DNA of 64,000 bases from a virus. The stretch covers positions 132,582 to 196,581 of IMG/VR virus record IMGVR_UViG_3300030329_003470; one strand, written 5' to 3'. Below the pieces are notes generated by a model, which made no database searches, had not been told where the DNA came from, and worked only from the letters and a program-made list of their open reading frames with translations. This document shows positions 3,115 through 18,635 of the stretch, piece by piece (within the stretch, counting starts at the first letter, position 1; each line of letters starts with the position of its first letter). Position numbers and translations under genes: made by a program.

Positions 3115-3479
3115 TATGATATCTCCGTTTTGCCATCTGGTGTTCTATTAATTTGAACATATCCAGAACCAGTTACATCTATACCTTGTTCGTTTCCTAT
3201 AGTTCTACATAGAGTTTGAAACCATCTATCAACTATTTCTTCATCAGACTGACCTTGATAACCATGTTGTGTTAACATATTAACAAATTCATCATTCCAA
3301 TCTAATTCAAAAAAACCATTACGAGGATTGTCTGGATTAACATTCATGTTTAAAACTTTAACCCAAGGTTCTTCACTTTTTTTGGTTTTCTTTTTTGCTC
3401 TAGTTTTTGTAGTTTTCTTTACTTTCATTGTTTTATTATACTTGGTTTTCTTTGTTTTGCCAACCATTATGTCCCCCAT
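3114..3479 (-). CDS. Hypothetical phage protein with basic N-terminus (GFFELDWNDEFV motif)
   Basis: ORF track. Confidence 0.7.
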   Translation of the reverse strand: MGDIMVGKTKKTKYNKTMKVKKTTKTRAKKKTKKSEEPWVKVLNMNVNPDNPRNGFFELDWNDEFVNMLTQHGYQGQSDEEIVDRWFQTLCRTIGNEQGIDVTGSGYVQINRTPDGKTEIS

Positions 3480-4354
3480 TTATTACCAAATAAGTCCACG
3501 TGTAATCTTGGCGAATACTTATAACCATGTTGCATTGCCAAGTCAGCAACTTGTTTTGATGTTTTTGCTTGTCCTTCTACTGTTGCACCCACCGCCATTA
3601 GGTAAATGTCTGCTTCAACACCTGCTTTTTTATATTCTTCTCTTGCCATTTCTACTTCTTCAATATCTTGTTCGTCTTGCACAACAAATTTAAAATATAA
3701 ATGACTGTTTGGTATGTTTGAATATTGGTAAGCAACGTCTGGTTTAATTGCTTTTGCCCAATGTTCTCCTGATATTGATAATTTTGGTGATGAAGACCAA
3801 GTTACGTGTACTGGAGTTTTAGTATAATCACCTGCTACTAATCCTTGTAAAAATCTTTGAAAGTCTGCTTTGAATAATTGTGTTAAATTAGTTTCAATAG
3901 TTAAATTTTTTAAATCTGTAAATTCTGGTTGTCTTAATAATTGTTGTGTTTCTCTTTGCCACAACATTGGTTCACCACCTGTTATAATAAAATGTATGTC
4001 TGAACCGTTATCGTTAGTCCATTTATTGTTTGGTGTGTATGTTTTTACTTTTTCTGCAATTTCTTCTATGCTATCCCAAGAAACTAAATGTTTGTATCTG
4101 TTTGCCCAACTGGCACTTGCATCACAACCTATTTCTACTACTGGTAAATCTCTCACGTGTTTGATGCCTGATAAATCTTGTGTGTTATATGGCATCTCTT
4201 CTGGTTTGAGCCATTTACTTTTATCTCTGCCTTGTCCAAACCCGTGACAGTTAAAGTTACAACCAAACACTCTAAAGAATACACTAGGTACACCTACAAA
4301 ACGTCCTTCGCCTTGTACACTGTAAAATATTTCTGAGTATCTTAGTTTTTCCAT
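3467..4354 (-). CDS. queE: 7-carboxy-7-deazaguanine synthase (radical SAM)
   Basis: YSEIFYSVQGEG, FFRVFGCNFNC...GCD, ITGGEP, SSSPKL, SPRLHVDLFGN signature. Confidence 0.92.
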   Translation of the reverse strand: MEKLRYSEIFYSVQGEGRFVGVPSVFFRVFGCNFNCHGFGQGRDKSKWLKPEEMPYNTQDLSGIKHVRDLPVVEIGCDASASWANRYKHLVSWDSIEEIAEKVKTYTPNNKWTNDNGSDIHFIITGGEPMLWQRETQQLLRQPEFTDLKNLTIETNLTQLFKADFQRFLQGLVAGDYTKTPVHVTWSSSPKLSISGEHWAKAIKPDVAYQYSNIPNSHLYFKFVVQDEQDIEEVEMAREEYKKAGVEADIYLMAVGATVEGQAKTSKQVADLAMQHGYKYSPRLHVDLFGNKWGT

Positions 4355-4506
4355 ATTTCTGGTGCTATTGCTTTTGTTGCCTCTACTAGTTCTTTTATTG
4401 TATACTGACTTTTAGGTTCCGTCAACTGAACCCAACGTATTTGGTTATTTTCTATGATTACTTTCCAATTACCGTCTGGAGATATGTTATTTTCTTGCTT
4501 TGTCAT
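4342..4506 (-). CDS. Small hypothetical protein (54 aa, MTKQENNISPDGNW...)
   Basis: Manual translation; overlaps both neighbours. Confidence 0.5.
   Translation of the reverse strand: MTKQENNISPDGNWKVIIENNQIRWVQLTEPKSQYTIKELVEATKAIAPEIWKN
4397..4425 (-). promoter_or_regulatory. sigma70-type promoter upstream of queE
   Basis: TTGACG-N17-TACAAT on minus strand. Confidence 0.7.
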
Positions 4507-4885
4507 TTTTTTTGTCCAGTCTTACTACATTACTTGACTTTAAATGACCCACTGATTCTCTGATTATATCGTTGTGTCTGAATTCCGCCCAATATAACTC
4601 AAATGCAACACCTGACTCTATTCCTTCAAAGGAATGATATAGTCCTGGTTTAACTGCTGTGAAGTCACCGGCTTTAAGTATAGTTTCGTCTACTAGATCG
4701 TAGTCTTTTTGCCATACACGGATTTTCATCTCGCCTTCCATTACGTAGAAACCATTCCATTTCCATTCGTGTTTGTGTTTAGAACACACACCACCTTTTA
4801 CGAAATCTATTCTATGAAACTCACAAGAACTGTTTGCTAGAATAAGTTCTGTCTGTCCCCAAATTTTTCCTGCTTTGTTTCCCAT
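4487..4885 (-). CDS. Cupin-fold protein (sugar isomerase-like)
   Basis: CSKHKHEWK...GEM and GLYHSF cupin metal motifs. Confidence 0.8.
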   Translation of the reverse strand: MGNKAGKIWGQTELILANSSCEFHRIDFVKGGVCSKHKHEWKWNGFYVMEGEMKIRVWQKDYDLVDETILKAGDFTAVKPGLYHSFEGIESGVAFELYWAEFRHNDIIRESVGHLKSSNVVRLDKKNDKARK

Positions 4886-4897
4886 AATGTATTTTTA

Positions 4898-4926
4898 ATT
4901 ATACTTTTATTTAGATGATTTGTCAA
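4898..4926 (-). promoter_or_regulatory. Consensus sigma70 promoter upstream of cupin
   Basis: Perfect TTGACA-N17-TATAAT. Confidence 0.85.
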
Positions 4927-4949
4927 TGGGGGAGAAAAAATCTCCCCCA
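4927..4949 (-). terminator. GC-rich hairpin after yhhQ (terminator or stabilising stem)
   Basis: Perfect 9-bp inverted repeat TGGGGGAGA-N5-TCTCCCCCA just after stop; no clear U tract. Confidence 0.55.
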
Positions 4950-4955
4950 AATGCT

Positions 4956-5606
4956 CTATTTGATATTTTTGTATTTTGCTTGTAGTCTATTGAGTAAAAT
5001 ACCATATGCTGGTAAGAACACAATTAATCCAACTACAATTTTAGTCAGTGTATTATTCTGTGCAACAACGTGCCAGTTTGCACCAATCCATGATAGGTTG
5101 CCTTCAGCATCTAATGATCCTGCAAATGCAACGTAAAAGAATGAATAGGTATCAATTATGTTTGCCGCAATAGTTGAGATTGCCGGTGCCGCCCACCATG
5201 CCTTTGACTTCTCTCTGATTGCTTGGAAAACGTACACGTCAAGCATAGTACCAATTGCATAAGCAGTACCACTTGCAAATCCTACTCTGTATGCGTGTGG
5301 GTCACCTAATGCTAACAGTACAAGTACTGATGCTACGATTGCCGGAATGATTGCCATTGCAACAACGGCTCTTCCTGCTTCTTTTCCGACCATTCTAACT
5401 GTTAAGTCAGTTGCTACTACAACAATCGGAAATGTAAACGCCGCCGCCGCTAGTGGGAATGATCCAAATAATGGAAGTTCTGCACCGGGAAATAAATCGA
5501 ATCTGATTGTTACTAGATAATTTGATAAAGCAATTACTGCCGTATGTAAAATAACTAGATTTCTAACAAGTGTTCTATCGACACCTGCCATTATTGATTT
5601 TAACAT
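4956..5606 (-). CDS. yhhQ: Queuosine precursor (preQ0/preQ1) transporter, YhhQ/VUT family
   Basis: Multi-TM; ALSNYLV, FTFPIVVVATDLTVR..G, DVYVFQ, NIIDTYSFF motifs; AAGGAGG SD. Confidence 0.88.
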   Translation of the reverse strand: MLKSIMAGVDRTLVRNLVILHTAVIALSNYLVTIRFDLFPGAELPLFGSFPLAAAAFTFPIVVVATDLTVRMVGKEAGRAVVAMAIIPAIVASVLVLLALGDPHAYRVGFASGTAYAIGTMLDVYVFQAIREKSKAWWAAPAISTIAANIIDTYSFFYVAFAGSLDAEGNLSWIGANWHVVAQNNTLTKIVVGLIVFLPAYGILLNRLQAKYKNIK

Positions 5607-5640
5607 TAAGTCCTCCTTCGAAGTTTTATTAATGTTGCTT

Positions 5641-5670
5641 ATTTTAACAGTCTTTTAATGATTGTGTCAA
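5641..5670 (-). promoter_or_regulatory. sigma70-type promoter upstream of yhhQ
   Basis: TTGACA-N18-TAAAAT with TGn extension. Confidence 0.65.
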
Positions 5671-5683
5671 TACAAGTTTTACG

Positions 5684-6145
5684 TTACTTGTCCCATTCTT
5701 CCCATGGAAAAACAATCCAGTGTGGTCGTTCTTGCTTGTTTATTTCATAACCATGGTAATCTACTTTGACTTTGCTTGGTTTATTGTGGATAAGTGCCGC
5801 AAATTTTATTCTATCTTCTTCCTTACCAAAATTATCAATAATATATTGGAATGTATCTCCAGAATCGTTTATGTCATCGATGATTAATATTTTCTTTTGG
5901 AACGCAAATGCCTTTTCTAACACAGATAAATTTGGTTTTGCTGTGTGATCTCTCAATCTTATATCAAGTACTTCGTGTGGTGTTTTAATTCTGTGAGAAA
6001 GATATACACCAGGAATACAACCACCTCTATTAATACCAAGTACAATAGTTGGCATCCAATTAGAATGGACCATTTGGTCTTCTATTTGAATTAATGCGTT
6101 ACGCATCTGTCCTGTTGTAAAATAACTTTTTTTAATATCGTCCAT
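5684..6145 (-). CDS. Type I phosphoribosyltransferase (Gpt/purine PRT-like)
   Basis: GINRGG, ILIIDDINDSGDT PRPP loop, WIVFPWE C-terminus. Confidence 0.88.
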   Translation of the reverse strand: MDDIKKSYFTTGQMRNALIQIEDQMVHSNWMPTIVLGINRGGCIPGVYLSHRIKTPHEVLDIRLRDHTAKPNLSVLEKAFAFQKKILIIDDINDSGDTFQYIIDNFGKEEDRIKFAALIHNKPSKVKVDYHGYEINKQERPHWIVFPWEEWDK

Positions 6146-6150
6146 ATTAA

Positions 6151-6179
6151 ATTATACTAGATTTAAATGAAATAATCAA
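6151..6179 (-). promoter_or_regulatory. sigma70-type promoter, 5 nt from PRT start codon
   Basis: TTGATT-N17-TATAAT-N5-ATG. Confidence 0.7.
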
Positions 6180-7353
6180 CTGGTATTATTTTAGTAAAAT
6201 CGTTTTTTCTTACCTTATCAAATGCTTGTAATCTATAGACACATTGTTTTGCTAGGTTTTCTTTGTAATCAATGTTTGTTTGTATGAAATTTTTTAAAGA
6301 ATTAACAAACTCAGAATTAAATCCATTATAATTTTTTAATTTATCCAACATTTGATTTTTAAAAACTGTTTTTATAGATAATAGTTGAAAACATTCTGGA
6401 TGGCTTAAAAGCACAGGAAAAATTGTTATTTTTTTATTATCAAAGTAATTTACCAAATCTATTATTCCTGTAAAGGTAGAAGCCTGTACTACATGATTTA
6501 CTGATACAAATAAATTATCTGGCTTATCTTCTAAAAGAACATTTAAATTTTTTTCTAAGTCTTGCCATTTATGTCCAAATCTTGCATATTCTAAAACTGA
6601 TCCTATACCTTCAACACTAATTGCAATCCAAATTTCTTTAAATTTTTTTAAAATAGATAGTATATTATGATTTAATTTTGTAAGATTTGTAGTAAAATGC
6701 AAAATACATTTCTTTTTTTGTTCGTCTGGTATTGATTCTAATGTTTCTAAAAGGTAAGGATTCATAAAAGGTTCGCCACCTGTAAATTTAATATAAGCAG
6801 ACTTATATAAAAACTTTTCACACCAATTTTTAAATTGTTCTGTTTCTGCCCATTTGTAATCTAAATTTAGATCTTCATTGTGAAATTTTTGTAATTCTGT
6901 GTTTAGTTTTGCTTCTGCTAATATTTGACTGCTTGATTCAGGACTACACATAATACATTTAAGATTACATAGGTTGCCTAATTTTAAATCAAAACTATTA
7001 ACATTATTAATATCAATATTTTCAATAACATCTAATAATTTTTTATTTTTAATAAAATTTTTATCCCATGAATCTTCTAGTATTTTTCCAATATGTTTGT
7101 TGTAGACTTGTCTTTGTGATTGTTTTCCTGTTGCTTCTGTTTTCCAACAATTAACACAAATAGGATCTTTAACACCTTTTTCTAAGTTATTTCTTAAAGA
7201 TTGTAAAGTATCTGATTTGTACCAATCCTGAGCATTGTAATATTTTTTTGTTGATTTTTCTTGACTAACACAACAAACTCTCAAATATCCAATTGGATTA
7301 ATATCTAAGTGTTGATAGGGTGCAATACAAAATGTATTCTTATTAGGAATCAT
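6163..7353 (-). CDS. Radical SAM protein with N-terminal SPASM/twitch-like Cys cluster (paralog 1)
   Basis: FCIAPY...VCC, CVNC, CNLKCIMC, FTGGEP. Confidence 0.88.
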   Translation of the reverse strand: MIPNKNTFCIAPYQHLDINPIGYLRVCCVSQEKSTKKYYNAQDWYKSDTLQSLRNNLEKGVKDPICVNCWKTEATGKQSQRQVYNKHIGKILEDSWDKNFIKNKKLLDVIENIDINNVNSFDLKLGNLCNLKCIMCSPESSSQILAEAKLNTELQKFHNEDLNLDYKWAETEQFKNWCEKFLYKSAYIKFTGGEPFMNPYLLETLESIPDEQKKKCILHFTTNLTKLNHNILSILKKFKEIWIAISVEGIGSVLEYARFGHKWQDLEKNLNVLLEDKPDNLFVSVNHVVQASTFTGIIDLVNYFDNKKITIFPVLLSHPECFQLLSIKTVFKNQMLDKLKNYNGFNSEFVNSLKNFIQTNIDYKENLAKQCVYRLQAFDKVRKNDFTKIIPVDYFI

Positions 7354-7362
7354 ATTGTATAT

Positions 7363-7641
7363 TTAAAAGTATACAATAAGGTGTCTAAATAATGCTGTCG
7401 CCAGCATAGTTAATAATATAGTGTTTAAAACAATTAATGCTCTGTCGTGCCATTTGAATCCAACGTATAACCAACCTGCTGTTCCTAATGCTGAAAAATA
7501 AACATCATAAATTTTAGGTACTTCTTCAACAGATCTACATAATACAGCAAGACATATTAAAATTACAGATACCCATTTTACGTACCAAGTGCTGTCGTGT
7601 AATGGTGTAACTTTTTTTATACTATTTTGTGTATTGTTCAT
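7363..7641 (-). CDS. Small membrane protein (DUF6552-like)
   Basis: Three hydrophobic segments; WYVKW, GW.YVG..WHDRALIVLN pattern. Confidence 0.65.
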   Translation of the reverse strand: MNNTQNSIKKVTPLHDSTWYVKWVSVILICLAVLCRSVEEVPKIYDVYFSALGTAGWLYVGFKWHDRALIVLNTILLTMLATALFRHLIVYF

Positions 7642-8671
7642 AGACTTTGTTTAGGACGTTGTTTGTTGTTACAAAACTTGCACACTTAGGCATATCTTTT
7701 AATCTTCTAGCACCAATGTATGTACAAGCACTTCTAACTCCGCCTAGTATATCTTCAACTGTATTACTAACAGGTCCTCTATCAGGCAAGTGTACTAGTC
7801 TGCCTTCGTTGCCTCTGTATCCATCTTTTCTTTTGCCATGCACTTCTCTTGCTCTATCTGAACTCATGCCATAAAATTCTCTAAATCCATCTTTTACTTC
7901 TATTTCTGATTCATTGTGTCCTGCTAACATACCACCTATCATAACCATATGTGCACCGCCACCTAATGCTTTTGCTATATCACCTGGTTGTGTGCAACCA
8001 CCATCTGCCATTATGTGTCCATCAACACCATTGGCCGCATCTGCACAATCTAGTATTGCTGAAAATTGTGGAACACCTACACCAGCCATTGTTCTTGTTG
8101 TACAAACTGATCCTGGTCCTATTCCTATTTTAACTACGTCAGCACCGTTAATAATTAACTCTTCTGTCATCTCAGGTGTTACTACGTTACCTGCTACAAT
8201 TACTTTGTCTGGATATTCTTCTCTTACTTTTGCAACAAAACCGACCATGTTTTGATGATATGCATTAGCAACATCTATTGTAATCATTTTAACATCAGGA
8301 AAACTTTTTAATACTTCTTGCATATTACGATAGTCTTCTGCGTCGTCGTCGAATACTCTATTGGTTCCTGTACATACTGAAACACTTTGTAGTCTTACAC
8401 CACTACCAACTGCCGCTCTCCATTGATCTGGAGTAGTAGTTTTTGTTATTACAGTCATCATTTTGTATTCTTGTAATACTTTTGCCATACTAAATGTACC
8501 AACACCATCCATATTACTTGCAAATATAGGAGTAAAGTTCATTGTCTTGCCTGAATTTCTAAATGTAAATTTACGAGTCATGTCTACATCTTTACGAGAT
8601 GTAAGTGTAGAACGTTTTGGTTGTAATAAAACATCTTCAAAGTTTAGTTTTGCATCGTAATTAATTCTCAT
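7622..8671 (-). CDS. guaC: GMP reductase
   Basis: DVLLQPKRSTL.SR, ASNMDGVG, IDVANAY, GIGPGSVCTTR, ADGGC, FYGMSS; start refined to ATG 8671. Confidence 0.95.
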   Translation of the reverse strand: MRINYDAKLNFEDVLLQPKRSTLTSRKDVDMTRKFTFRNSGKTMNFTPIFASNMDGVGTFSMAKVLQEYKMMTVITKTTTPDQWRAAVGSGVRLQSVSVCTGTNRVFDDDAEDYRNMQEVLKSFPDVKMITIDVANAYHQNMVGFVAKVREEYPDKVIVAGNVVTPEMTEELIINGADVVKIGIGPGSVCTTRTMAGVGVPQFSAILDCADAANGVDGHIMADGGCTQPGDIAKALGGGAHMVMIGGMLAGHNESEIEVKDGFREFYGMSSDRAREVHGKRKDGYRGNEGRLVHLPDRGPVSNTVEDILGGVRSACTYIGARRLKDMPKCASFVTTNNVLNKVYEQYTK

Positions 8672-8966
8672 TTTCTTCCTTCTCTCTTGTTTCACACATT
8701 TGTTTTATATTTTGATAATGTTCGTAAGCATCTTGTAATGCTGGATATTTTTTTCTTAATTGTGATTCAAACATATCTTCTGTTTGTACATCTAAATCTC
8801 CTAAGTCACCATAAGAATAAGTTACACCACCCATATCTGGATCTAAACTGTCCACAGTACCAGCCATTTGTATTCCATCACTGCTAGGAATCCAATTATC
8901 AGGAGAAGGTTCGTATGTTACGTTAACACCGTCTGATGTAAGTTTTTCTTTTTTCTTTTTACTCAT
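8661..8966 (-). CDS. Hypothetical protein
   Basis: ORF track; overlaps folE stop and guaC start. Confidence 0.65.
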   Translation of the reverse strand: MSKKKKEKLTSDGVNVTYEPSPDNWIPSSDGIQMAGTVDSLDPDMGGVTYSYGDLGDLDVQTEDMFESQLRKKYPALQDAYEHYQNIKQMCETREKEENEN

Positions 8967-9669
8967 GGCCTTTCATACTCATACAAATTTTATAAAATTC
9001 ATCTCTAGTTGCTGGATCATCTTTAAATGCACCAAGCATAATTGCAGTTGTCATATCAGATTCGTGTTCTCTTACGCCTCTGTGTGTCATGCAATGGTGT
9101 TCTGCTTTAACTACTACTGCAATATGTTTTGTGTGTGCATATTCTTGTAATGCTTCTGCAATTTGTGTTGTCATTTCTTCTTGTATTTGTGGTCTTTCTA
9201 CAATGTGATGTATAATTCTGTTAAACTTACTCAAACCAATTACTTGTCCGTTTGGAATAATACCTACCCATGCGTTACCTACAATGTTTTGTAAATGGTG
9301 AGCACACGTAGATTTAATACTAATTGGACCACTAGTGTACATACTCTTGTAACCCATATTAGGAAAACTTGTAACTCTTGGCATTGGATTATATCTGCCA
9401 CCAAATGTTTCTTGTATATACATTTTAGCGACACGTTTTGCAGTTTCTTGTGTGTTGTGATCGTTTTCTGTATCAATTACAAGACTTTCTAGTACCCCTT
9501 GTAATTTTTCTTGCACTTCTACTTGTAATTTTTCTAATTCGCCTTCTTCTATGTATTCTGCAATATTATCGTTTGCATGGAATCGTTTACCTGCTTTTTG
9601 AATTCTTTCTTTTATTTGTTTACTAATTGGTCCTGTTGGTTGCCAACTATCTTTTAACATATCTTCCAT
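8959..9669 (-). CDS. folE: GTP cyclohydrolase I
   Basis: ETAKRVAKMY, STCAHH, GLSKFNR, QIQEEMT, HHCMTHRGV. Confidence 0.95.
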   Translation of the reverse strand: MEDMLKDSWQPTGPISKQIKERIQKAGKRFHANDNIAEYIEEGELEKLQVEVQEKLQGVLESLVIDTENDHNTQETAKRVAKMYIQETFGGRYNPMPRVTSFPNMGYKSMYTSGPISIKSTCAHHLQNIVGNAWVGIIPNGQVIGLSKFNRIIHHIVERPQIQEEMTTQIAEALQEYAHTKHIAVVVKAEHHCMTHRGVREHESDMTTAIMLGAFKDDPATRDEFYKICMSMKGHE

Positions 9670-9684
9670 AATTTATATCCTATC

Positions 9685-9713: not shown

Positions 9714-9714
9714 T

Positions 9715-10323
9715 TTAAAAGACATCTCCATTGCATTTAATTTGGTCGCTACAAATTTTGTAAATTAGATCTATATAATTAGAAGAACCAAATTGAGGGT
9801 TAATACCAAAACATTGGTATTTTGTATTAAAGTTTTTCATTACCAAATAGTTTGTAAATTTATAACCACTGTAATCAGCATAATCATCAACACCTTTAAC
9901 ATTTTTATCAATGTAACTAGACAGCATCCAACCTATAGTAGCATTTTTATCTAACTTATTTCGTTCTTCAAGTGTTTTGATTATTGTAAAAGGAAATTGA
10001 CAACTTAACCAATAACTTTTACTCCAGTTTGCAGTCAAATTCCATAAATCAAAAGTTTTAATTGTATCAGTGAAATTTTCTTTTGATAGAGCAGATGAAT
10101 TTTGGTTGAAAAATATAAAGTCTATATTTTGATTTATTTGTTTACAAAGTTTATGCAGTTGTGGAATATGAAAAGTTTTCCAGTCTATTATAAAGTTTTC
10201 TACATTTTCTAATTTTGATTCACTAGAGCCAACATTAATTACTTTAAAGTTTGCTTGTTGGCAACCTTTTATTATGTTTTCTCCTCTTGTTCCACCACAC
10301 CCTATTAATAATGCTGTTTTCAT
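9715..10323 (-). CDS. Rossmann-fold, degenerate SDR-like protein
   Basis: ALLIGCGG N-terminal motif, Y..YK near C-terminus. Confidence 0.55.
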   Translation of the reverse strand: MKTALLIGCGGTRGENIIKGCQQANFKVINVGSSESKLENVENFIIDWKTFHIPQLHKLCKQINQNIDFIFFNQNSSALSKENFTDTIKTFDLWNLTANWSKSYWLSCQFPFTIIKTLEERNKLDKNATIGWMLSSYIDKNVKGVDDYADYSGYKFTNYLVMKNFNTKYQCFGINPQFGSSNYIDLIYKICSDQIKCNGDVF

Positions 10324-11459
10324 ATTAGATCCTTAAAAACTAGTTGCCAGTTTTTAGTATGACGTTTTGTGATTGAATCAAGACAATCGTTATATTCATA
10401 TTCGTTACTTAATCGAATACGATCAATACAATTTTTTAAATTGTTTATGAGGTTGTTGTGTTCTAAAGAAATAGTGTATATCAATTTTCTTAAATCATTA
10501 ACTATTTTTTCTTTTTTATCGCTAGGATAGTTTCTAGCATCAATTTCTTTTGGCGAATGCAAAGTGTTTATAGTAATATCTTGTATTTGTTCATCATGAT
10601 AAAAGAAATTTATTACATCACAAATATCTATTGCATTTATAACACTAAAAATCATATTCACTCTAATATCAAAGTTTGTGTTTTGTTTTATAAATCGTAG
10701 ATTATCTATGAACGTATTCCAATTAGATCCGTTCCTTATGTAATCAAATTTATCATACAATGCATCACAACTCATTGTTAATTGTACATTATTAAATGTT
10801 TTCAATATTTTAAATAATTTATTGTTTGGTTTCCAATGCATATTAGTATTAATTCTAATTGGAATATCTTTGTTTTTTAATTGTTCTAAAAGTACATGAT
10901 TGTATGGTATGTAGAAAGGTTCTCCACCACTCATATATATCTCTTTAATAAGATCTTGATTTTTTACAACCATTTGATTTATTCTATCAATGTTTTGTTT
11001 TTTTACTGGAGTTATGAATACGTTTTCTGCTTTTGCTATAAGACTGCTTTGAGTTGCATCGCACATAACACATTTTAAATTACACACATTTGACCAGTGT
11101 AAATCAATAAATCTTAAATCAAAATTTTCAATGTTTTCGTAATCAACTTCTTCTTTTACTAGTCTAGCATTGTAGTGGTCACGTAGATAACTAAAATTTT
11201 CTTCTTTGATTGATCTATTTTGACATTCGACACAATTTGCGTCTGGTTGGTTGTTTAACATATTAGTCTTAATCCTTTTTAGTGTTGGATTTTTCCTAAG
11301 TATTTCCATAATATCGGTGTCATTAACATTGCCAAATTTCTCTCGTCCTACACTACAAGTTTTTATGTCGCCGTTTGTGAATATCTCAAAGTTTGTCCAC
11401 GGAACAACGCAGAAGTGTTTGTTTGTTCTAAATAAATGAAATTTTTTTTTTGGGTCCAT
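10320..11459 (-). CDS. Radical SAM protein with N-terminal SPASM/twitch-like cluster (paralog 2)
   Basis: FCVVPW...TC, CVEC, CNLKCVMC, MSGGEP. Confidence 0.88.
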   Translation of the reverse strand: MDPKKKFHLFRTNKHFCVVPWTNFEIFTNGDIKTCSVGREKFGNVNDTDIMEILRKNPTLKRIKTNMLNNQPDANCVECQNRSIKEENFSYLRDHYNARLVKEEVDYENIENFDLRFIDLHWSNVCNLKCVMCDATQSSLIAKAENVFITPVKKQNIDRINQMVVKNQDLIKEIYMSGGEPFYIPYNHVLLEQLKNKDIPIRINTNMHWKPNNKLFKILKTFNNVQLTMSCDALYDKFDYIRNGSNWNTFIDNLRFIKQNTNFDIRVNMIFSVINAIDICDVINFFYHDEQIQDITINTLHSPKEIDARNYPSDKKEKIVNDLRKLIYTISLEHNNLINNLKNCIDRIRLSNEYEYNDCLDSITKRHTKNWQLVFKDLI

Positions 11460-11465
11460 AAATTA

Positions 11466-12497
11466 TCATTGAATATTTTTTTTATGAACTTTATTATACC
11501 ATTTTAGTGCAGTAGCAACAACATTATCAATTGAACTTTGTGTTGGCTCCCAACCTAAAATTTGTTTTACTTTGGTTATGTCTGCTACTAGGTATGCAGG
11601 GTCTCCTGCTCTGTTTGGTTCAAATTTTATATCCATTTTGCCTGTATGTCTTTGTATAGTATCTAATAATTCTCTATTAGAAACAGGCGATCCAGATCCT
11701 AAATTAAAAACTTCAGCAACTTTGTTTTCAAATGCATAATTTAAAGATTTGACGTGTGCATCTGCAAGATCCATTACATGAACATAATCTCTTACACACG
11801 TTCCATCTTCGGTTGGATATTTTGTGCCAAACAATTTAAATGTTCTATTTTGTCTTGATGCTTCAATGGCCAACGGAATAATATGTGATTCTTGTTCTCT
11901 TAATTCTCCAATTTCTGCTTCTGGATCTGCACCAGCGGCATTAAAATATCTCAATCCTACACTTGATAATCCATATGCAGTTTTATAATCTTTACAAACT
12001 TGTTCCATCATTAGTTTAGTTGCACCATATGAATTGATTGGTGTACATACATCTGACTCTCTACACATTTTCATTCCTTGATCACCATAGGTGGCCGCAC
12101 TTGAAGAATATACAAATGTTTTTATATCAAGTTCAACTAATTTGTCTAAAAGAGCAATAGTGTTAATAAGATTATTTTTATAATATAGTGTTGGATTTAT
12201 TACGGATTCTGCAACAGATGTACTACCTGCAAAATGTATGCAACTTGTTATGTTGTATCTTTTAACAATTTCGTCTAGTCTATCAATTTCTTGAGGTAAT
12301 TGTAAATTGTAATTTGGACCAAACGAGTTTGCATTTTTTCTAAAATGTCTATCGACAGTTACAGGTATGTAACCGTTTTTTGATAATAGTTTACAAGTGT
12401 GTGAACCAACATATCCGGCACCTCCAGTAACTAATACTGCTCTATTCAGTCCTTTAATACTTGGATTCGGAAACTGGTGTTCTGTAGTGTTTTCCAT
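11466..12497 (-). CDS. galE: UDP-glucose 4-epimerase
   Basis: TGGAGYVGSH, SSSAATYG, YGATK, LRYFNAAGA, GTCVRDYVHV. Confidence 0.93.
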   Translation of the reverse strand: MENTTEHQFPNPSIKGLNRAVLVTGGAGYVGSHTCKLLSKNGYIPVTVDRHFRKNANSFGPNYNLQLPQEIDRLDEIVKRYNITSCIHFAGSTSVAESVINPTLYYKNNLINTIALLDKLVELDIKTFVYSSSAATYGDQGMKMCRESDVCTPINSYGATKLMMEQVCKDYKTAYGLSSVGLRYFNAAGADPEAEIGELREQESHIIPLAIEASRQNRTFKLFGTKYPTEDGTCVRDYVHVMDLADAHVKSLNYAFENKVAEVFNLGSGSPVSNRELLDTIQRHTGKMDIKFEPNRAGDPAYLVADITKVKQILGWEPTQSSIDNVVATALKWYNKVHKKNIQ

Positions 12498-13629
12498 CTC
12501 TTCTCCATTGTTCTCCCGTGCCTGTCATGATGTCTATCATTCTATCTATTGTACCGTCAGTCCAATCAGATATTTGACCCATACTAGGGGATGGTCTCAT
12601 TAATAATACTTTTAATTTTTCCATTGCGTCTCTGCCAGACCATGGAATATACATTCTTGTTTCGTCGTTTGCAAAAGTTTCTGGAAAAGATCTATATGCT
12701 GGAAACAATACGTTAGTGCCTAACGCATCTGCTTCAGATACTGTGTTAGATGTCCAATCTTGTAATGCACAATTAAACAACACTCGTGAATCTGCAAGTA
12801 TTTCATAATATTCATTCTTTTTCAAATTTTCATATATTTTTAGGTTTCCATCTTGTTCCATTACTCTTGCTCTATTAACATAAGAGGTTTCGTTGCTTCT
12901 TAAAGGACCACCGCAACAAATTGCAAATTCTACTTCTGGTAGTTTTGGATTTGCTTTCCAATGATCAATCATGTCCATAAAAAAGCCTGGTTGTTTTTCT
13001 TGATCCCATCTTGCACCAAATACAACTCTCATTTTTCTATCATTAAATTCTTTTCTATTAGGAACTCTTTCTTGTACTTCTTCTTTGCCAAAACTTAAAC
13101 CTGATATGTTGTATATGGGTGCTTTCCAATTAGCAATACGCATATGTGCAACCATTTCTTCATTTGTTGCAAGTATATTAACATTTGGAATTTCATTACA
13201 CATTTCTTCGTATAAACTCATCCATTTGCTCATACCCCAAACGTGTACAAAATCATCAGGGTCGATTGCCTGTGCTAAACATCTCAAATATATTGTTGGT
13301 CTATAATCTTCACTCACTTGTTGTAGTATGTAAGGAAGTGATTCCATACCTGGCTGAAACATATCTTCAAAGAATACAATATCTTCTTTTGTAACTTCAC
13401 CAGATTTCATCATTTGCACAAGATTCATCATTTGGCTCATACCAAAATAACTTCTGCCATGTGCATCTAATACTTGTCCTGTTACAATCGCTTCAGAGTC
13501 ATCAATTGTTGTGCCTGGTACAATTACATAGTCTATACCACGTTTTTTATATACTCTTTCTGTCCAGTCTGTTAATTGATAAGTGTATCTTGCTTGATAC
13601 GACTCTAGGCCCATGTAAAAAATTTTCAA
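12454..13629 (-). CDS. GT-B (GT4-like) glycosyltransferase
   Basis: ARWDQEKQP, FNCALQDWTSNTVSEADALG (E-x7-E-like region), two-domain length. Confidence 0.75.
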   Translation of the reverse strand: MKIFYMGLESYQARYTYQLTDWTERVYKKRGIDYVIVPGTTIDDSEAIVTGQVLDAHGRSYFGMSQMMNLVQMMKSGEVTKEDIVFFEDMFQPGMESLPYILQQVSEDYRPTIYLRCLAQAIDPDDFVHVWGMSKWMSLYEEMCNEIPNVNILATNEEMVAHMRIANWKAPIYNISGLSFGKEEVQERVPNRKEFNDRKMRVVFGARWDQEKQPGFFMDMIDHWKANPKLPEVEFAICCGGPLRSNETSYVNRARVMEQDGNLKIYENLKKNEYYEILADSRVLFNCALQDWTSNTVSEADALGTNVLFPAYRSFPETFANDETRMYIPWSGRDAMEKLKVLLMRPSPSMGQISDWTDGTIDRMIDIMTGTGEQWRRDGKHYRTPVSESKY

Positions 13630-14783
13630 TTTAATACCTCTTTGTAAAGATTTGGAAATACTTTCTTACTATCTAAATTTCTTCTATTATCCATAATTTT
13701 TATTTGTTTTTTAACTTCTTCTATATTAGCATAAAAACCAGAGTCAGTCAAATACTTTAGTAAGTTTTCCAAACCATTTTGTAATAGAAAACCTGGTTTT
13801 TCATCAATTAAATCTTCTAGTTTTCTTTTTACCTGTTTTTTTGCTTGATGTGGTAAGTTTTTAATATTAAGATAAACTGGATTATAAACAGGTCCTAATA
13901 CAAAACTGTTATTGTGAAATCCTAATCCTTGTAAGAATTTAATACAATCAAATATACTCATGTAATTTAAAATTAAATGAAGCATATTAAAACTAATTTT
14001 ATGATTTTTTAACTTAGAAATTGTTTTAATATTGTCTACAAAATCTTTCCAACGTCCACCAAATCTAATATATTCGTATTCTTCTTCAATTGATTCTATA
14101 CTTACAGTCCAATGAACGTTTTTAAATTTTTGTATTAATTGGAATACACCTGTTTTTGTATTACTTAAATTTGTGTTAACTCTTAAATGAACATCTTTAT
14201 TTTTCTTATATAATAAATCTAAAAATTCTTTATTTTCGTTCATCATTAAAGGCTCACCTCCTGCAAGATAAACATTTTTTAAATTTTCAACATTATCAAA
14301 TACGTATTCTTTTACTTTTGCAATATTGTCTTTGTCTGTTTTTTGTTTTAGGCCTAACTCTTTTGCCCATTTGGTACTATTATGAGCACCACAGTACACA
14401 CAGGCTTGATTGCATTTATTACTCCATCTTAAATCTACGTGTGTTAAATCAAAATTATTTGGGTTATTAAATAAATCTTTTTTAATGTGTGGACCTAATT
14501 CTTTAGCATAATACATTCTACTACTAATATTATCAAAACTTTTTTTTCTGCCTTGCTCTTGATAAAAACAACCATCACAACTCTTAGGATATAATCCTTG
14601 AAGCATTTGTTGTTTTATTTCAATATTTTTTGTAGAATTTAAAATGTCTTTAATATTATTTTTGTGTACATTTCCTATTATGTCTTTGGCTATTACACAG
14701 TTTTTTACACTACCGTCAGTGTTCATAATAAAGCCAGACCACGGAATAGCACAAAAGTTTTTATCTAATAGTTTCCTTGACAT
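13626..14783 (-). CDS. Radical SAM protein with N-terminal SPASM/twitch-like cluster (paralog 3)
   Basis: FCAIPW...NC, CDGC, CNQACVYC, LAGGEP. Confidence 0.88.
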   Translation of the reverse strand: MSRKLLDKNFCAIPWSGFIMNTDGSVKNCVIAKDIIGNVHKNNIKDILNSTKNIEIKQQMLQGLYPKSCDGCFYQEQGRKKSFDNISSRMYYAKELGPHIKKDLFNNPNNFDLTHVDLRWSNKCNQACVYCGAHNSTKWAKELGLKQKTDKDNIAKVKEYVFDNVENLKNVYLAGGEPLMMNENKEFLDLLYKKNKDVHLRVNTNLSNTKTGVFQLIQKFKNVHWTVSIESIEEEYEYIRFGGRWKDFVDNIKTISKLKNHKISFNMLHLILNYMSIFDCIKFLQGLGFHNNSFVLGPVYNPVYLNIKNLPHQAKKQVKRKLEDLIDEKPGFLLQNGLENLLKYLTDSGFYANIEEVKKQIKIMDNRRNLDSKKVFPNLYKEVLN

Positions 14784-14822
14784 ATAGATATTTAGATTAA
14801 AATAAATTTACGGAAAAATTTC

Positions 14823-15143: not shown

Positions 15144-15156
15144 AATATGATATTTA

Positions 15157-15690
15157 TTATGAGTCGCTTTTTAAAAAGTTTAACATTGTATCAGCATCTG
15201 ATACTTTGAACGGATCGTCATCATCACTAGCATCGTTCTTGCCTTCTTCAACAAATTGTTTAACAACTTCGCCGTTGTCAACAAGCATTGAATATCTCCA
15301 AGATCTTGTACCAAAACCTTGCTTAGGTTTATTCACAAGCATACCCATACCTTGTGTGAATGCACCTTCGCCATCACCTATAGGTTTGACCTTTTTAATG
15401 TTCTCATCTCTGAACCAAGCATTCATTACAAATGAATCATTCACTGACAAACAATATACTTCGTCAACACCTTGTGCTTTGATTTCGTCATATTTTGCTT
15501 CGTAACCCGGTACTTGTTGTGAAGAACAAGTTGGTGTAAATGCACCTGGAAGTGCAAACACAACAACTTTCTTACCTGAGAAAATTTCTTCTGTATCAAC
15601 ATCTTTCCATTCGCCACCAATAAATGTACATCCACCTACTGCATCAGTATCGCCAACTCTTGTTCTAAAAGTTGTATATGGTACTTTCAT
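15157..15690 (-). CDS. Peroxiredoxin (Prx5-like)
   Basis: [31 protein letters not shown]. Confidence 0.92.
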
Positions 15691-15691
15691 G

Positions 15692-16012
15692 TTACACTGC
15701 CTCCTTTGTTAATTTAACAGCACCTTTATTGGTGTGTTTAATTCTGTGTTTGTTTTGTAATGCTAAATGTAAAAAAGTTTCATATTTTTCTTCTTTAACC
15801 ATTAACGTAACACAGTCGTCGTCTTCATTGTCATATCCGTGATATGCCCAAATGAAATCTTTGCCGTATGTCATACCTAAGTTTCCAGCAGTAGTACATA
15901 TGTTTGCTACTGCATCAACAAAAGTATATGAAGCATTTAAGGCACCACCACCAACTGGTAGATAACCCATTCTTGTTGTTGCTCTTGATTCTTTAATCGT
16001 TATTTCTTTCAT
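15692..16012 (-). CDS. Hypothetical protein
   Basis: ORF track; start refined to ATG 16012 (MKEITIKE), uncertain. Confidence 0.65.
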
Positions 16013-16442
16013 AAACTGCGTGACTTCCATTTTCACCATCTTCAGAAACATCTATTTCAATTTTTCTGCCTGGGTATCTTTTTGTTATTGCTACATATAA
16101 ATCATCTGACATCATTTCACAAGATTTATAATCTAATTTTAATGTACCTTCACTGTACATATCTTCAATCCATCTTTTAAATTGTATAAACTCAATATCT
16201 CTATCATCATGAAATACTTCAATTGCAACTTTAAAATGAAATATATGTCTGTGTGGATGTCCTAAAAACGATACATCATATCTGTCTCCAGTTGCTAGTT
16301 TAGGATCATCTAGTGCCGCAGGATATTTGTGAATTCCTTCTTTTCTAAATGTTACCCATATCATTTTAGTTGCCATGTTGGCTTGTTCTACTAATGCTTG
16401 ATGTCTTAACTGTTCTGTACTAACTTCTTTGGCATCGGCCAT
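15993..16442 (-). CDS. QueD/PTPS-like T-fold protein
   Basis: EGIH, HPHRHIFH and KSCEM putative Zn/catalytic residues; location in Que cluster; lacks canonical CxxxHGH. Confidence 0.7.
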   Translation of the reverse strand: MADAKEVSTEQLRHQALVEQANMATKMIWVTFRKEGIHKYPAALDDPKLATGDRYDVSFLGHPHRHIFHFKVAIEVFHDDRDIEFIQFKRWIEDMYSEGTLKLDYKSCEMMSDDLYVAITKRYPGRKIEIDVSEDGENGSHAVYERNND

Positions 16443-16963
16443 ATTTGTTTCTCCTCTATTGGTTCATCTTTTTTATAATCTTCCCATTTAGTATATCCTG
16501 CTTTTGACTTAAAATCTTCCATACTCATTGTCCAAACACCAGAATTTGTTTTATTAAAATCTATGTCATCAATTTTAAAACAAAGTTGTTTATCGTTGTC
16601 TACATTTTCAAATATTATAGAACAAAACGGTATAAATTTTTCATGATTCCAAACAAGATTAAATTGTTTTTGTACTTCGTTGTGCATAGAGTAAGGATAA
16701 TCTAAAGTTACAAAATATCCACGTTCTAATAGTTGTGTCATTTGTCCTACTTGGTTTGCAACATTTGATATAAATGATCTATTTGCTCCATAATAAACTG
16801 CTTCTGCTTTAACACTTTCACATAGTTCTTGAATTTGATCATATGTAAGATCGTTACGTGCAAGAAACAATGTTTGCAATCCATATGCAAGTGTGTGTTC
16901 TATTTCTTTACCAGAAAATACACCTACACCTTCTTTTATTCCAGTTTTATAATCTCGAAGCAT
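16406..16963 (-). CDS. Hypothetical protein in deazaguanine cluster
   Basis: ORF track; own consensus promoter. Confidence 0.75.
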   Translation of the reverse strand: MLRDYKTGIKEGVGVFSGKEIEHTLAYGLQTLFLARNDLTYDQIQELCESVKAEAVYYGANRSFISNVANQVGQMTQLLERGYFVTLDYPYSMHNEVQKQFNLVWNHEKFIPFCSIIFENVDNDKQLCFKIDDIDFNKTNSGVWTMSMEDFKSKAGYTKWEDYKKDEPIEEKQIWPMPKKLVQNS

Positions 16964-16968
16964 ACTGT

Positions 16969-16997
16969 ATTATACTATTAAACTATTTTTTTGTCAA
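16969..16997 (-). promoter_or_regulatory. Consensus sigma70 promoter, 5 nt from start codon
   Basis: TTGACA-N17-TATAAT-N5-ATG. Confidence 0.85.
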
Positions 16998-17180
16998 TGT
17001 CCGTTTGGCTTTAGCGATTGCATCTTTTATTGCAAGTTTGGTTTTTTTCAAACGCATTAAAAGTTGTTTGCTTTCGTCACTTCTATCTTGTTTTCTATCT
17101 TTGGTGAGTTCTGATACCTTTCTATTTAGGTAATCGTGATGATCTTCTAATTTTTTTAATTTTTTATCTTTACCAGCCAT
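16983..17180 (-). CDS. DUF465/YdcH-like small coiled-coil protein
   Basis: L..HH..L...V..L...L.RLKK.KL.IKD.I pattern. Confidence 0.65.
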   Translation of the reverse strand: MAGKDKKLKKLEDHHDYLNRKVSELTKDRKQDRSDESKQLLMRLKKTKLAIKDAIAKAKRTLTKK

Positions 17181-17189
17181 TTTTCTCTC

Positions 17190-18635
17190 CTATTCAAATA
17201 ATGAACTAAAGTTATTTTTACCTTTACCACCACCAGTTGCTCTTTGCCATCTAGTTCCTCTTATATCTGCAAGATAACTTGAAGCATTAGATATTACTTC
17301 CATTGGTTTTTCTGAGGTGAATACTTCTTCTGCAAGTGTATTAAAGTATAAAATATTTCTAGGAACATATTCACTAAATTCATCAGTGTTATCAGAACCT
17401 TTTGTTTTTCTCCAATGTCCAACTTGTGGTTGATATTTCAAACGTTCTATATCGTTTAAATCGTTTGCTGTTTGTACTGCTCTAATTTGATTGTATACGT
17501 TGTGTGCCATCATTAAACAATAACTAAAACTATCCCAACTTGTTTTGCCTTCTTTGTTATTCTTATTTAGGTCGCCTTCACCATACCAACACACGTCTCC
17601 CATTTTTAATCTATTACCAATTTGACTTGGAAACGGAAATTGTATATTAGAACCTTTTAATTTCTTATCATCTGGTGCTTTGTCCATAATAAATGAAAAT
17701 CTTTGTGGTGTGAATACGTTTTGTGTATAAACTAAACCATTTGCAGTTGATAAAAATGCTGATGCACTATCAAAACTTACTGTAAAGTTTGGATTAATAT
17801 GTTTTCTTACTTGTCTTTGTACCTGTGTTAAGTAGCAGGCCCAATCTAATTGTGATGTTCCTAGTATGTGCATCCAATCTTTGCCATCTAATTTCTTTTC
17901 ATCTCTCATTATGATTAGTCTTTTAAGTAGTACTTCCATATCACACATATTAATACCACCCATTCCCCAACCTTCAAATTCAAAGTCTTTTACTTGATCA
18001 TACCATATTTGTGCAGTTTCCCAATCATCACCTTGTAATACATTTAAAAACTTTGTTTGCCCTAATCTATTTTTTTGAAAGAAATTATTATTGTATATTG
18101 TTCCATCTAAACAATCTTGAAAACTATTCAATCCTGTTTTAGGACTATTCAAATCATCTGCCGCCCAACTTGGAACGTCTAATGTCATTGCCCAGTCACT
18201 TGTTAATTCTAACCAATTTAAAATATTGCTTCTTACTGCGTTTGCTTTATTACCCTCAAAATCTTTCCAATCAAATTTAATAACACCTTTGCCTAATTGA
18301 TATCCTCCAGAATCTCCTACTATTGTGCTAAACTTTCTATCTCTATCAACACACATAGAATCTCTGTCTGCAACTTTATCCATATCTAAACAGGCGTGTC
18401 CTGCTGAATATAATGCAGTTGGATATGTAAAGTAACCTTCGTCTGGATTAATAAAGTTTAAACCTTCAACTCCTCTATCTAAACCTTTTGGAATTCTTTC
18501 TGCTGGAATATGAGTACCTTTAGTAACTCTTTGTTTGGAAATAAATGTATTAAAGAAATTAGAAATAGCAGGCAAGAACACTGCAAAATCTCTGCTTAAT
18601 TCTCCTAAATGTTCTCGCCCTTTAATTTCTGTCAT
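17190..18635 (-). CDS. TGT-fold guanine transglycosylase (DpdA-like)
   Basis: GDSGGYQ, MTLDVP, HILG, SFDSAS, AHNVY motifs; no CxCxxC zinc cluster. Confidence 0.8.
   Translation of the reverse strand: MTEIKGREHLGELSRDFAVFLPAISNFFNTFISKQRVTKGTHIPAERIPKGLDRGVEGLNFINPDEGYFTYPTALYSAGHACLDMDKVADRDSMCVDRDRKFSTIVGDSGGYQLGKGVIKFDWKDFEGNKANAVRSNILNWLELTSDWAMTLDVPSWAADDLNSPKTGLNSFQDCLDGTIYNNNFFQKNRLGQTKFLNVLQGDDWETAQIWYDQVKDFEFEGWGMGGINMCDMEVLLKRLIIMRDEKKLDGKDWMHILGTSQLDWACYLTQVQRQVRKHINPNFTVSFDSASAFLSTANGLVYTQNVFTPQRFSFIMDKAPDDKKLKGSNIQFPFPSQIGNRLKMGDVCWYGEGDLNKNNKEGKTSWDSFSYCLMMAHNVYNQIRAVQTANDLNDIERLKYQPQVGHWRKTKGSDNTDEFSEYVPRNILYFNTLAEEVFTSEKPMEVISNASSYLADIRGTRWQRATGGGKGKNNFSSLFE

Follow-up and report, generated by a model that had tools for sequence, protein, structure and literature searches.

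Here we describe a gene cluster from an uncultured marine T4-like jumbo phage, represented by a genome fragment only, in which an enzyme with the fold of tRNA-guanine transglycosylase (TGT), a 7-deazaguanine pathway without QueC, and a glycosyltransferase (GT) are encoded side by side. The cluster lies at positions 3467-18635 of a 64,000-nt stretch, the whole of which is called the window below; it is the final 64 kb of a 196.6-kb linear contig (IMG/VR record IMGVR_UViG_3300030329_003470, CheckV completeness 55%). We propose that the cluster is a module for 7-deazaguanine modification of DNA, of the DpdA/DpdL kind and without QueC, to which a dedicated GT is attached. Taken as a single statement, sugar on the deazapurine included, the proposal appears to us evenly balanced between right and wrong. 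Its two parts differ in strength: we consider it likely that the phage DNA carries a deazaguanine, and somewhat doubtful, although a serious prospect, that a sugar is attached to that deazaguanine. The linkage of the GT to the deazaguanine genes is the new element, whereas the DpdA/DpdL core is already known.

An initial annotation of the window had named ten genes (queE, a cupin gene, yhhQ, a phosphoribosyltransferase [PRT] gene, guaC, folE, galE, the GT gene, a "QueD-like" gene, and the TGT-fold gene). All ten were found at the coordinates given in Table 1, co-oriented on the minus strand and leading into a clamp-like gene and PolB (20209-22872). The arrangement is not due to chance; the core order was repeated in 80 IMG/VR loci drawn with the TGT-like gene and in 80 drawn with the GT gene.

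The annotation had also proposed a 7-deazaguanine pathway served by a DpdA-type TGT-fold enzyme, and such a pathway is present, as indicated by the fold and catalytic motifs of the enzyme and by the accompanying DpdL, FolE, and QueE genes. The "QueD-like" label was right in that its protein has a QueD-derived T-fold, but the protein is not QueD; its motif and its homology to CGPG_00067 of Cellulophaga phage phiST and to an ACP17 protein identify it as a DpdL homologue. As introduced by Cui, Hutinet et al. 2023 (PMC10516641), DpdL is a QueD-derived T-fold protein in which CxxxHGH has turned into LxxxHRHxF, and in that account it is found in phages with DpdA, FolE, QueD, and QueE but without QueC. 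In the window protein this motif reads L-G-H-P-H-R-H-I-F, and 23 sequences agree without exception at H64, R65, H66, and F68. Its identity is 59% with ACP17 gp125 and 30% with CGPG_00067 (tblastn, E 3e-7), and the hidden Markov model (HMM) of its family matches CGPG_00067 with an E value of 7.7e-23. A profile search of the PDB with this protein gave nothing relevant, hhalign against canonical phage 6-pyruvoyl-tetrahydropterin synthase (PTPS) returned only a short C-terminal match (probability 0.6%), and ESM Atlas pointed only weakly to a cluster of viral PTPS (0.92). The assignment to DpdL was made because of the published motif and the direct homology. In Vibrio phage Bakedbeans, a DpdL domain forms the C-terminal third of a 383-393-aa protein (gp176, L097:9182-10363), fused to an N-terminal portion without assignment.

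FolE, QueD, and QueE together make 7-carboxy-7-deazaguanine (CDG), and DpdA enzymes exchange bases in DNA (PMC6884629, PMC10164549, PMC10516641). For DpdL, decarboxylation of CDG to 7-deazaguanine is the proposal put forward in PMC10516641, and the same source describes phiST DNA as carrying 2'-deoxy-7-deazaguanosine (dDG) at essentially all G positions. QueC was found neither on the 196.6-kb contig nor in a 353-kb relative of 99% completeness, nor in Pseudomonas phage PA5oct, the genome of which is complete; canonical PTPS/QueD is encoded elsewhere in the latter two. The QueE-like enzyme, matched over its full length by a PHROGs family, failed the cut-off of the NCBIfam QueE equivalogs (best 40 bits against 206), which matched only its first ~40 residues. 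Judged by gene content, the core most probably represents the DpdA/DpdL branch without QueC that is known from the literature, and not the preQ0/preQ1/G+ pathway. Because the pathway lacks QueC, the phage-made products that the annotation had cited as precedents (dPreQ0, dPreQ1, dG+, and dADG) are unlikely here; DpdL points instead to the dDG branch, as that branch is set out in PMC10516641.

The TGT-like enzyme was examined through a structure model that was computed with AlphaFold2 (AF2) from a 70-sequence alignment (mean predicted local distance difference test [pLDDT] 92.9). The model has the TGT-type (beta/alpha)8 barrel. In a Foldseek search with 186 matches at E values of 0.001 or lower, the matches listed were all TGTs (top E 1e-7), and a VIA comparison with TGT gave a Z score of 19.5 (root-mean-square deviation [rmsd] 4.7, 308 aligned residues). 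A wide structure search of 48,161 representative chains, independent of Foldseek, returned ArcTGT (Z 18.9), QTRT2 (17.3), bacterial TGT (17.0), the DNA preQ0 insertase DpdA (7ui4; 15.6 over 298 residues), and Cap10 (13.8); the next fold was a generic TIM barrel at Z 11.8, above which stood only members of the TGT superfamily. Among 70 diverse homologues, D108, S109, and G111 of the GDSGGYQ motif are invariant, as is D289, and D153 is at least 90% conserved. Profile alignment sets GDSGGYQ and LDvP of the family on the corresponding TGT motifs (the first two Asp). By motif resemblance, D289 is the putative nucleophile.

Sequence comparison brought out this relationship far less readily than structure did. 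The TGT-like protein matched nothing in Pfam, NCBIfam, PHROGs, PADLOC, or the PDB sequences, and no Pfam-level TGT was present on the 196.6-kb contig. A profile built from the 70 homologues reached TGT only at an E value of about 1.2, three of the 70 touched PF01702 (E 0.0045 or weaker), and hhalign of the family against DpdA3 of phiST was marginal (probability 60%). The family HMM found ACP17 gp123 (E 2e-10), the TGT-like gene product of the ACP17 cluster and probably the dpdA that Cui et al. expressed (PMC10516641), and a BFVD search matched a protein of Vibrio phage nt-1 (E 7e-9). The family is nonetheless large: above 6,300 homologues received scores, and clustering at 50% identity left 946 groups. 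On the strength of the model, the enzyme belongs to the TGT/DpdA superfamily, with no placement in bDpdA or DpdA1-4, and we infer DNA as its substrate.

A gene for a conserved 185-aa protein accompanies the TGT-like gene. It was present in all 32 TGT-drawn loci with at least 9 kb of downstream sequence, and its ACP17 counterpart is gp122. The protein had no match in a PDB profile search, in the Atlas, in Pfam (38 members), or in PHROGs, and no homologue was found in PA5oct, Phosso, BUDD, phiST, or BCSR5. It has no relationship to the Phosso protein that is annotated as "glycosylase". A perfect 12/12 TTGACA-17-TATAAT match lies at 16961-16997 and ends 6 nt before the ATG of this gene; a transcript started there would be leaderless or nearly so.

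The initial annotation had suggested a survey of gene neighbourhoods and had named a GT unlinked to dpdA as the result that would speak against its idea. The opposite was found, with the GT linked to TGT-like/DpdL genes in every lineage that offered enough sequence. When 80 IMG/VR loci were drawn with the TGT-like gene, 51 of the 52 that had enough flanking sequence contained the GT, and in 41 of those the GT was at most 400 nt from DpdL. In the 32 of these loci with at least 9 kb downstream, GT and DpdL were both present every time, followed by PRT (25), FolE (24), and QueE (22). When 80 loci were drawn with the GT gene, DpdL was found in 60/60 of those with 3 kb on both sides (median gap 417 nt), and the TGT-like gene in 74 of the full 80. 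The same held for isolate phages, as each of the 17 records with a GT match also carries DpdL, at most about 3.5 kb away.

Profile searches located the GT inside the cluster in ACP17, BUDD/X1, BCSR5, Phosso, PA5oct, and BUCT-ZZ01, with a different gene order in each. Moreover, two subtypes each of the GT (A and B), DpdL (1 and 2), and the TGT-like enzyme (J and T2) occur in many combinations, and yet the trio is kept together. Between the window and BUCT-ZZ01, for example, the GTs are 66% identical, whereas the DpdL proteins are only 37% identical and the TGT-like proteins are related detectably by profile only. Eight alphaproteobacterial isolate loci (L199:641-13823 from Ochrobactrum sp. MYb379, and L189, L191, L192, L194, L196, L198, and L200) hold adjacent genes for the TGT-like enzyme, a Vut_1/YhhQ-like transporter, and the GT, with no FolE or QueE within 8 kb; in L199 the transporter gene lies between the other two. 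DpdL is missing from five of the eight, and the Methylobacterium loci, such as that of Methylobacterium sp. EM32, have it. These units may be cellular DNA-modification islands related to the phage module. A conserved gene for a ~850-aa protein of unknown function lies near the unit in 5/8 of the loci, and the Ochrobactrum unit sits between two integrase genes, adjoining a GmrSD type IV restriction gene. DpdL also occurs without this GT, in phiST, RHph_I1_18, Ahp1_CNU, Bakedbeans, and D479. The overall pattern fits a GT that is an accessory enzyme dependent on the TGT-like enzyme or its product. Because most phage loci come from related T4-like phages, the co-occurrence is partly inherited, which weighs against reading the raw counts at face value; reordering, subtype swapping, and the bacterial islands therefore carry more weight than the counts.

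The GT itself was modeled with AF2 from a 38-sequence alignment of related loci, with a mean pLDDT of only 76. The model has the two-Rossmann GT-B fold. Its Foldseek matches include BshA, MshA, PimA, and glycogen synthase (E 1e-10), and VIA gave Z scores of 22.8 to sucrose-phosphate synthase (6kih; rmsd 3.8, 339 aligned residues) and of 19-21 to PimA, PglA, BshA, and LmbT. In all 38 sequences, of both subtypes, R207, K212, and E299 are invariant and an Asp or Glu stands at position 291, eight before E299. Mapped by pattern, R207/K212 and (D/E)291-x7-E299 would correspond to the Arg/Lys pair and the EX7E motif of GT4 enzymes. The score against Pfam Glycos_transf_1 (19.0 bits) did not reach the gathering cut-off (26.4), and for this reason the enzyme is named GT4-like rather than a GT4 member. 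From motifs and model, it is probably active.

In the sugar arm that the initial annotation had seen beside the pathway, galE goes with one GT subtype. A galE gene follows the subtype A GT in 62/66 GT-drawn and 8/9 TGT-drawn loci (70/75 in all, median gap -3 nt), and follows the subtype B GT in 0/26. Since GalE is coupled only to subtype A, a 4-epimerised UDP-hexose is supported as the subtype A donor. Subtype A is found in this window, in L075, in L050, and in BUCT-ZZ01, with GTs that are 64-66% identical; subtype B, carried by PA5oct, Phosso, ACP17, and BUDD, is 22-27% identical to A. In Synechococcus phage BUCT-ZZ01, the subtype A GT is not the only one; a different, GT1-like gene (L090:6385-7728) lies directly upstream of the TGT-like gene, and there is no GalE. 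A complex prediction for the TGT-like protein with the GT scored 0.00 and counts neither way.

The gene identities, folds, catalytic motifs, and genetic linkage established here are the basis from which we infer every chemical step, the DNA target, and the acceptor and identity of the sugar. In the pathway that we propose, FolE and QueE, together with a QueD encoded elsewhere in the phage or by the host, would turn GTP into CDG. The DpdL-like protein would then convert CDG, by decarboxylation to 7-deazaguanine if the published proposal is followed, and the TGT-fold enzyme would swap the CDG-derived base for guanine in phage DNA. Finally, the GT would add a sugar to the deazapurine, using a 4-epimerised UDP-hexose from the phage GalE; the transfer could precede insertion, with the free base as acceptor, or follow it, with the acceptor already in DNA. 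One chemically possible route is that decarboxylation by DpdL unmasks C7, after which the GT would glycosylate the electron-rich pyrrole ring at C or N. Of the neighboring enzymes, PRT would most simply salvage the released guanine, YhhQ might import deazapurine precursors, and GuaC could shift GMP towards IMP, which would suit an AT-rich genome. More broadly, we tentatively suggest, with a little more reserve than for the sugar as such, that the TGT-like enzyme and the GT form a two-enzyme system of jumbo/T4-like phages and alphaproteobacterial islands that places a sugar-bearing 7-deazapurine in DNA. With GalE, subtype A would yield a Gal/GalNAc-type adduct, tailored in this phage by twitch radical S-adenosylmethionine (SAM) enzymes, and subtype B, as in PA5oct, a different sugar.

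PA5oct offers a phenotype against which this proposal can be set. Its DNA resists restriction enzymes at G-containing sites (PMC12191111); the modified base was not identified and is sensed by END nucleases. Given this G modification, a glycosylated deazaguanine is plausible. A full-text search of the literature gave no report of a glycosylated deazaguanine in DNA and no comment on a GT or a PRT in such clusters.

Several points weigh against the proposal. The main weakness is that position 7 of 7-deazaguanine has no obvious O- or N-acceptor. The sugar is proposed from the genes of this phage and its GT-bearing relatives. The invariant acceptor-side residues of the GT are acidic, so that a small-molecule acceptor fits better than DNA. 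The phiST cluster contains no GT although dDG replacement in phiST is full, and hence the GT is dispensable for the base itself. In the founding paper, the decarboxylase activity of DpdL is itself a proposal (PMC10516641). Canonical QueD was found neither on this contig, which is 55% complete, nor on the fragmentary close relatives.

Some of these points feed the strongest alternative, which we nevertheless regard as unlikely: the phage would make plain dDG (or dCDG) as phiST does, and the GT would act on something else, such as a pterin or an intermediate of the pathway, a protein, or a glycan of the cell or virion, traveling with the cluster for regulatory or historical reasons. Besides the phiST precedent and the acidic acceptor side, there is the GT model, which matches a pterin glucosyltransferase (5zer, Z 19.4) no less closely than T4 alpha-glucosyltransferase (AGT; 1y6f, Z 19.2), both being tied with many others, and the genome has nine twitch radical SAM paralogues and two other large glycan islands. 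This alternative does not readily explain why each GT homologue found with this query, in phages, IMG/VR, and cellular genomes with enough flank, adjoins a TGT-like and/or DpdL gene, why the trio persists through subtype swaps and reordering, or why the TGT-like enzyme, transporter, and GT alone are kept in the bacterial islands.

Much less probable is a pre-replicative nucleotide route in the style of tubercidin and toyocamycin. The PRT would ribosylate a deazapurine with phosphoribosyl pyrophosphate (as TubE/ToyH do), the GMP-reductase homologue would deaminate it (TubD/ToyE-like, in the marine subclade), and host kinases and ribonucleotide reductase would feed a 7-deazapurine deoxynucleoside triphosphate (dNTP), possibly of deaza-adenine, to PolB. 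Consistent with this route, a 6-oxopurine PRT is clustered here, in PA5oct, and in BUCT-ZZ01 (between QueE and QueD), a genuine member of the GMP-reductase family is encoded two genes away from FolE, and the pathway ends at CDG, which is reportedly the tubercidin branch point. However, a TGT-fold enzyme whose catalytic residues are intact is kept throughout, ACP17, BUDD, Phosso, and the bacterial islands have no PRT, and guanine salvage is sufficient to account for the PRT. Moreover, GuaC is ~55% identical to ordinary GMP reductases and is confined to the marine subclade. The 7-deaza-adenine variant was ranked low because the contig has no PurA- or PurB-like gene. Finally, manipulation of host tRNA or queuosine, with the TGT-like enzyme acting on tRNA, the sugar placed on a tRNA deazaguanine as in galactosyl- and mannosyl-queuosine (galQ/manQ), and phage DNA untouched, would agree with structure scores nearer tRNA TGTs (Z 17-19) than bacterial DpdA (Z 15.6) and with the existence of glycosylated queuosine in tRNA (PMC11755703; 10.64898/2026.06.28.735034), but it is very improbable in view of the restriction resistance of PA5oct DNA at G-containing sites, the constant adjacency of the TGT-like gene to PolB and the clamp gene, the dDG described for the DNA of phages with homologous DpdL/DpdA (PMC10516641), and the lack of QueA, QueG, QueH, or any other queuosine-building gene among the open reading frames (ORFs) of this stretch.

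Under the proposal of a deazaguanine module with a dedicated GT, some published data from ACP17 can be revisited. In that phage, gp122 (the 185-aa homologue) lies just upstream of gp123 (TGT-like), followed by gp124 (GT-like) and gp125 (dpdL). When ACP17 dpdA and dpdL were expressed in Escherichia coli, no dDG was formed, according to the expression experiment in PMC10516641, the description of which names dpdL and dpdA only. If that description is complete, omission of the neighbors gp122 and gp124 may account for the negative result.

Not all of the genes named in the initial annotation form one system; guaC, the cupin gene, and others, and also the radical SAM genes that lie among them, are clade-specific insertions. 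Interspersed with the named genes, but left unnamed there, are three N-terminal-twitch radical SAM genes, genes for SET-domain, redoxin, DUF465, and DUF6552 proteins, and four genes without assignment. Confined to the marine subclade are GuaC, DUF6552, YhhQ, cupin, SET, redoxin, DUF465, and a class I SAM-dependent methyltransferase, the last of which lies between the clamp-like gene and PolB (19400-20200) in 8/81 loci. GuaC is found only in the close relatives L002-L010 and in 14/80 GT-drawn loci, and the SET-domain gene is common to only a few close relatives. The PRT is also encoded in PA5oct (gp163) as well as in BUCT-ZZ01, and among solved structures it comes closest to purine PRTs of archaea and to XGPRT of E. 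coli.

Table 1. Genes of the cluster and its border in the window, with the evidence for each assignment
Feature	Position	Strand	Evidence
QueE-like radical SAM enzyme (CDG synthase family)	3467..4354	-	phrog_2076 "QueE-like" E 7.5e-53, full length
Small cupin, weakly WbuC-like	4487..4885	-	Cupin_2 E 8.7e-9; TIGR04366 26 bits, below cut-off
YhhQ/Vut_1 queuosine-precursor transporter	4956..5606	-	TIGR00697 92 bits vs cut-off 51
6-oxopurine PRT, XGPRT-like, 153 aa	5684..6145	-	PDB 1vdm E 3e-16; also Sulfolobus GpT, E. coli XGPRT
N-terminal-twitch radical SAM, between GuaC and PRT	6163..7353	-	NF033640 265 bits
GMP reductase GuaC	7622..8695	-	NF003470 451 bits vs cut-off 397; human GMPR2 E 8e-109
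GTP cyclohydrolase I (FolE)	8959..9669	-	Pfam PF01227 E 3.4e-48; 24/32 loci
202-aa protein, glycine-rich (Rossmann-like) N-terminal start	9715..10323	-	4-nt overlap with upstream radical SAM gene
N-terminal-twitch radical SAM, downstream of GalE	10320..11459	-	NF033640 235 bits
UDP-glucose 4-epimerase GalE	11466..12497	-	TIGR01179 331 bits vs cut-off 262; PDB 8wxk E 2e-77
GT-B, GT4-like glycosyltransferase, subtype A	12454..13629	-	AF2 model and motifs
N-terminal-twitch radical SAM, stop/start overlap with GT	13626..14783	-	NF033640 276 bits
SET-domain protein, 106 aa	14823..15143	-	Pfam SET E 1.2e-12; between redoxin and radical SAM genes
Redoxin/peroxiredoxin-like protein	15157..15690	-	Pfam Redoxin E 2.9e-29; clade-specific
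DpdL-like T-fold protein, 149 aa (proposed CDG decarboxylase family)	15993..16442	-	Motif and homology
185-aa conserved protein, partner of the TGT-like gene in marine jumbo phages and ACP17	16406..16963	-	Context
481-aa TGT-fold base-exchange enzyme (predicted), DpdA-like, "J" subtype	17190..18635	-	Structure model and motifs
Clamp-like protein	18635..19372	-	phrog_12062 E 2e-38; before the TGT-like gene; present in 80/81 loci

In this phage, the genes for a radical SAM enzyme, the GT, GalE, a second radical SAM enzyme, and the 202-aa ORF overlap or abut. The 202-aa protein had no family match, and no homologue of it was found in 81 loci. The NF033640 family of the radical SAM enzymes has nine paralogues on the contig, including one at window 32747-33940 and five in a row at C1:113987-121089, in another glycan-type island, and its cut-off was reached in none of 14 control genomes. 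At the module itself, the presence of these genes varies among close relatives. The three radical SAM genes were dropped as candidate parts of the deazaguanine pathway because of the nine paralogues, the five in another glycan island, and their patchy distribution in close relatives; in the cluster they are optional tailoring genes at most.

The window has a G+C content of ~33%, and its minus strand carries nearly all genes. Its PolB, a single 887-aa frame, shares 50% identity with the PolB of Phosso, a Sinorhizobium jumbo phage, and 42-46% with the enzymes of Atu_ph07 and Rak2-like jumbo phages, and the Phosso homologue of the clamp-like protein is annotated as a sliding clamp. The PolB of PA5oct is interrupted by a homing-endonuclease gene (L001:1608-6834). 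About ten studies have metagenome runs, marine and subsurface, that contain near-identical sequence. The 58-kb contig NZHE01000019.1 (L180), from the metagenome-assembled genome "Rickettsiales bacterium MED657", bears the complete module with a GT 80% identical to that of the window; either a phage contig was binned wrongly here, or the label hints at the host.

Short marine metatranscriptome contigs from three runs, 99-100% identical to the window, fall on YhhQ, GuaC, GalE, GT, redoxin, and clamp-like genes. Because DNA carry-over is possible in such libraries, they hint only weakly at expression in situ, and the uncovered parts are uninformative. A scan for sigma-70-like promoters gave 83 matches against 89.7 expected, a total not above chance. 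The few 11-12/12 matches that fall in intergenic gaps lie before the 185-aa gene, FolE, YhhQ, and cupin; this placement is compatible with early expression, although the scan overall is at chance level.

To our knowledge, the 7-deazaguanine marks described in DNA all have small substituents at position 7, and the known sugar-bearing DNA bases are pyrimidines. If the proposal is true, a deazapurine with a sugar on it would add a class to the hypermodifications of DNA and be the first sugar-bearing purine analogue known in any genome. The module also occurs in PA5oct-type Pseudomonas phages, which are therapy candidates, and the cultured phages allow direct testing. In addition, cells may have a counterpart of the Dpd system, at which the TGT-like/YhhQ/GT islands of bacteria hint.

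Among the known systems closest to this one is the DpdA3/DpdL system of phiST and relatives, which makes dDG (PMC10516641). The two share FolE and QueE without QueC near the polymerase region, with canonical QueD found here only in relatives, and they share a DpdL with LxxxHRHxF and a divergent TGT-family enzyme missed by Pfam. They differ in that the TGT-like enzyme here is almost double the length of DpdA3 and marginally related to it, and in that a GT4-like GT and a purine PRT have been added here, with GalE, YhhQ, and GuaC added in this clade; phiST has a MazG-like gene instead. Another is the gp162-gp168 module of PA5oct (Wroclawvirus), with the same gene order of PolB, clamp-like, TGT-like (gp168, 39% identity), GT (gp167), DpdL (gp166, 57%), PRT, QueE, and 5'-3' exonuclease. 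PA5oct, however, has a subtype B GT (22% identity to the window GT) and is without GalE, YhhQ, GuaC, the radical SAM genes, and the 185-aa protein. The bacterial Dpd system (DpdA/DpdB/DpdC; dPreQ0 and dADG; PMC10164549) likewise combines a TGT-fold DNA base-exchange enzyme with mobile islands, whereas the module here has no preQ0 supply, QueC being absent, and has DpdL and the GT as partners. DpdB- or DpdC-like genes were not noticed in the window, although no search was aimed at them.

In Streptomyces, the clusters for tubercidin and toyocamycin contain GTP cyclohydrolase I, QueE, a PRT, a GMP-reductase homologue, and a PurA/PurB-like pair. The first four are clustered in the window as well, in a pathway that would likewise end at CDG; a TGT-fold enzyme, the failure to find PurA/PurB-like genes, and the restriction of GuaC to one subclade set the window apart. 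In the galQ and manQ of vertebrate tRNA (made by QTGAL and QTMAN/GTDC1), a sugar is also placed on a TGT-installed 7-deazaguanine derivative, but the acceptor there is a hydroxyl of the queuosine cyclopentenediol side chain, in tRNA, whereas the window has no queuosine side-chain genes and the nucleic acid concerned is probably DNA. The alpha- and beta-glucosyltransferases of T4, which act on 5-hydroxymethylcytosine, resemble the arrangement here in that a GT-B enzyme encoded beside replication genes of a T4-like phage would decorate a non-canonical base. They show no sequence relationship to the window GT, its acceptor would be a purine analogue without the hydroxymethyl handle, and the base here would be installed by exchange rather than via the dNTP pool. 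Overall, the core of the cluster is of a known kind, and the GT coupled to it is the candidate novelty.

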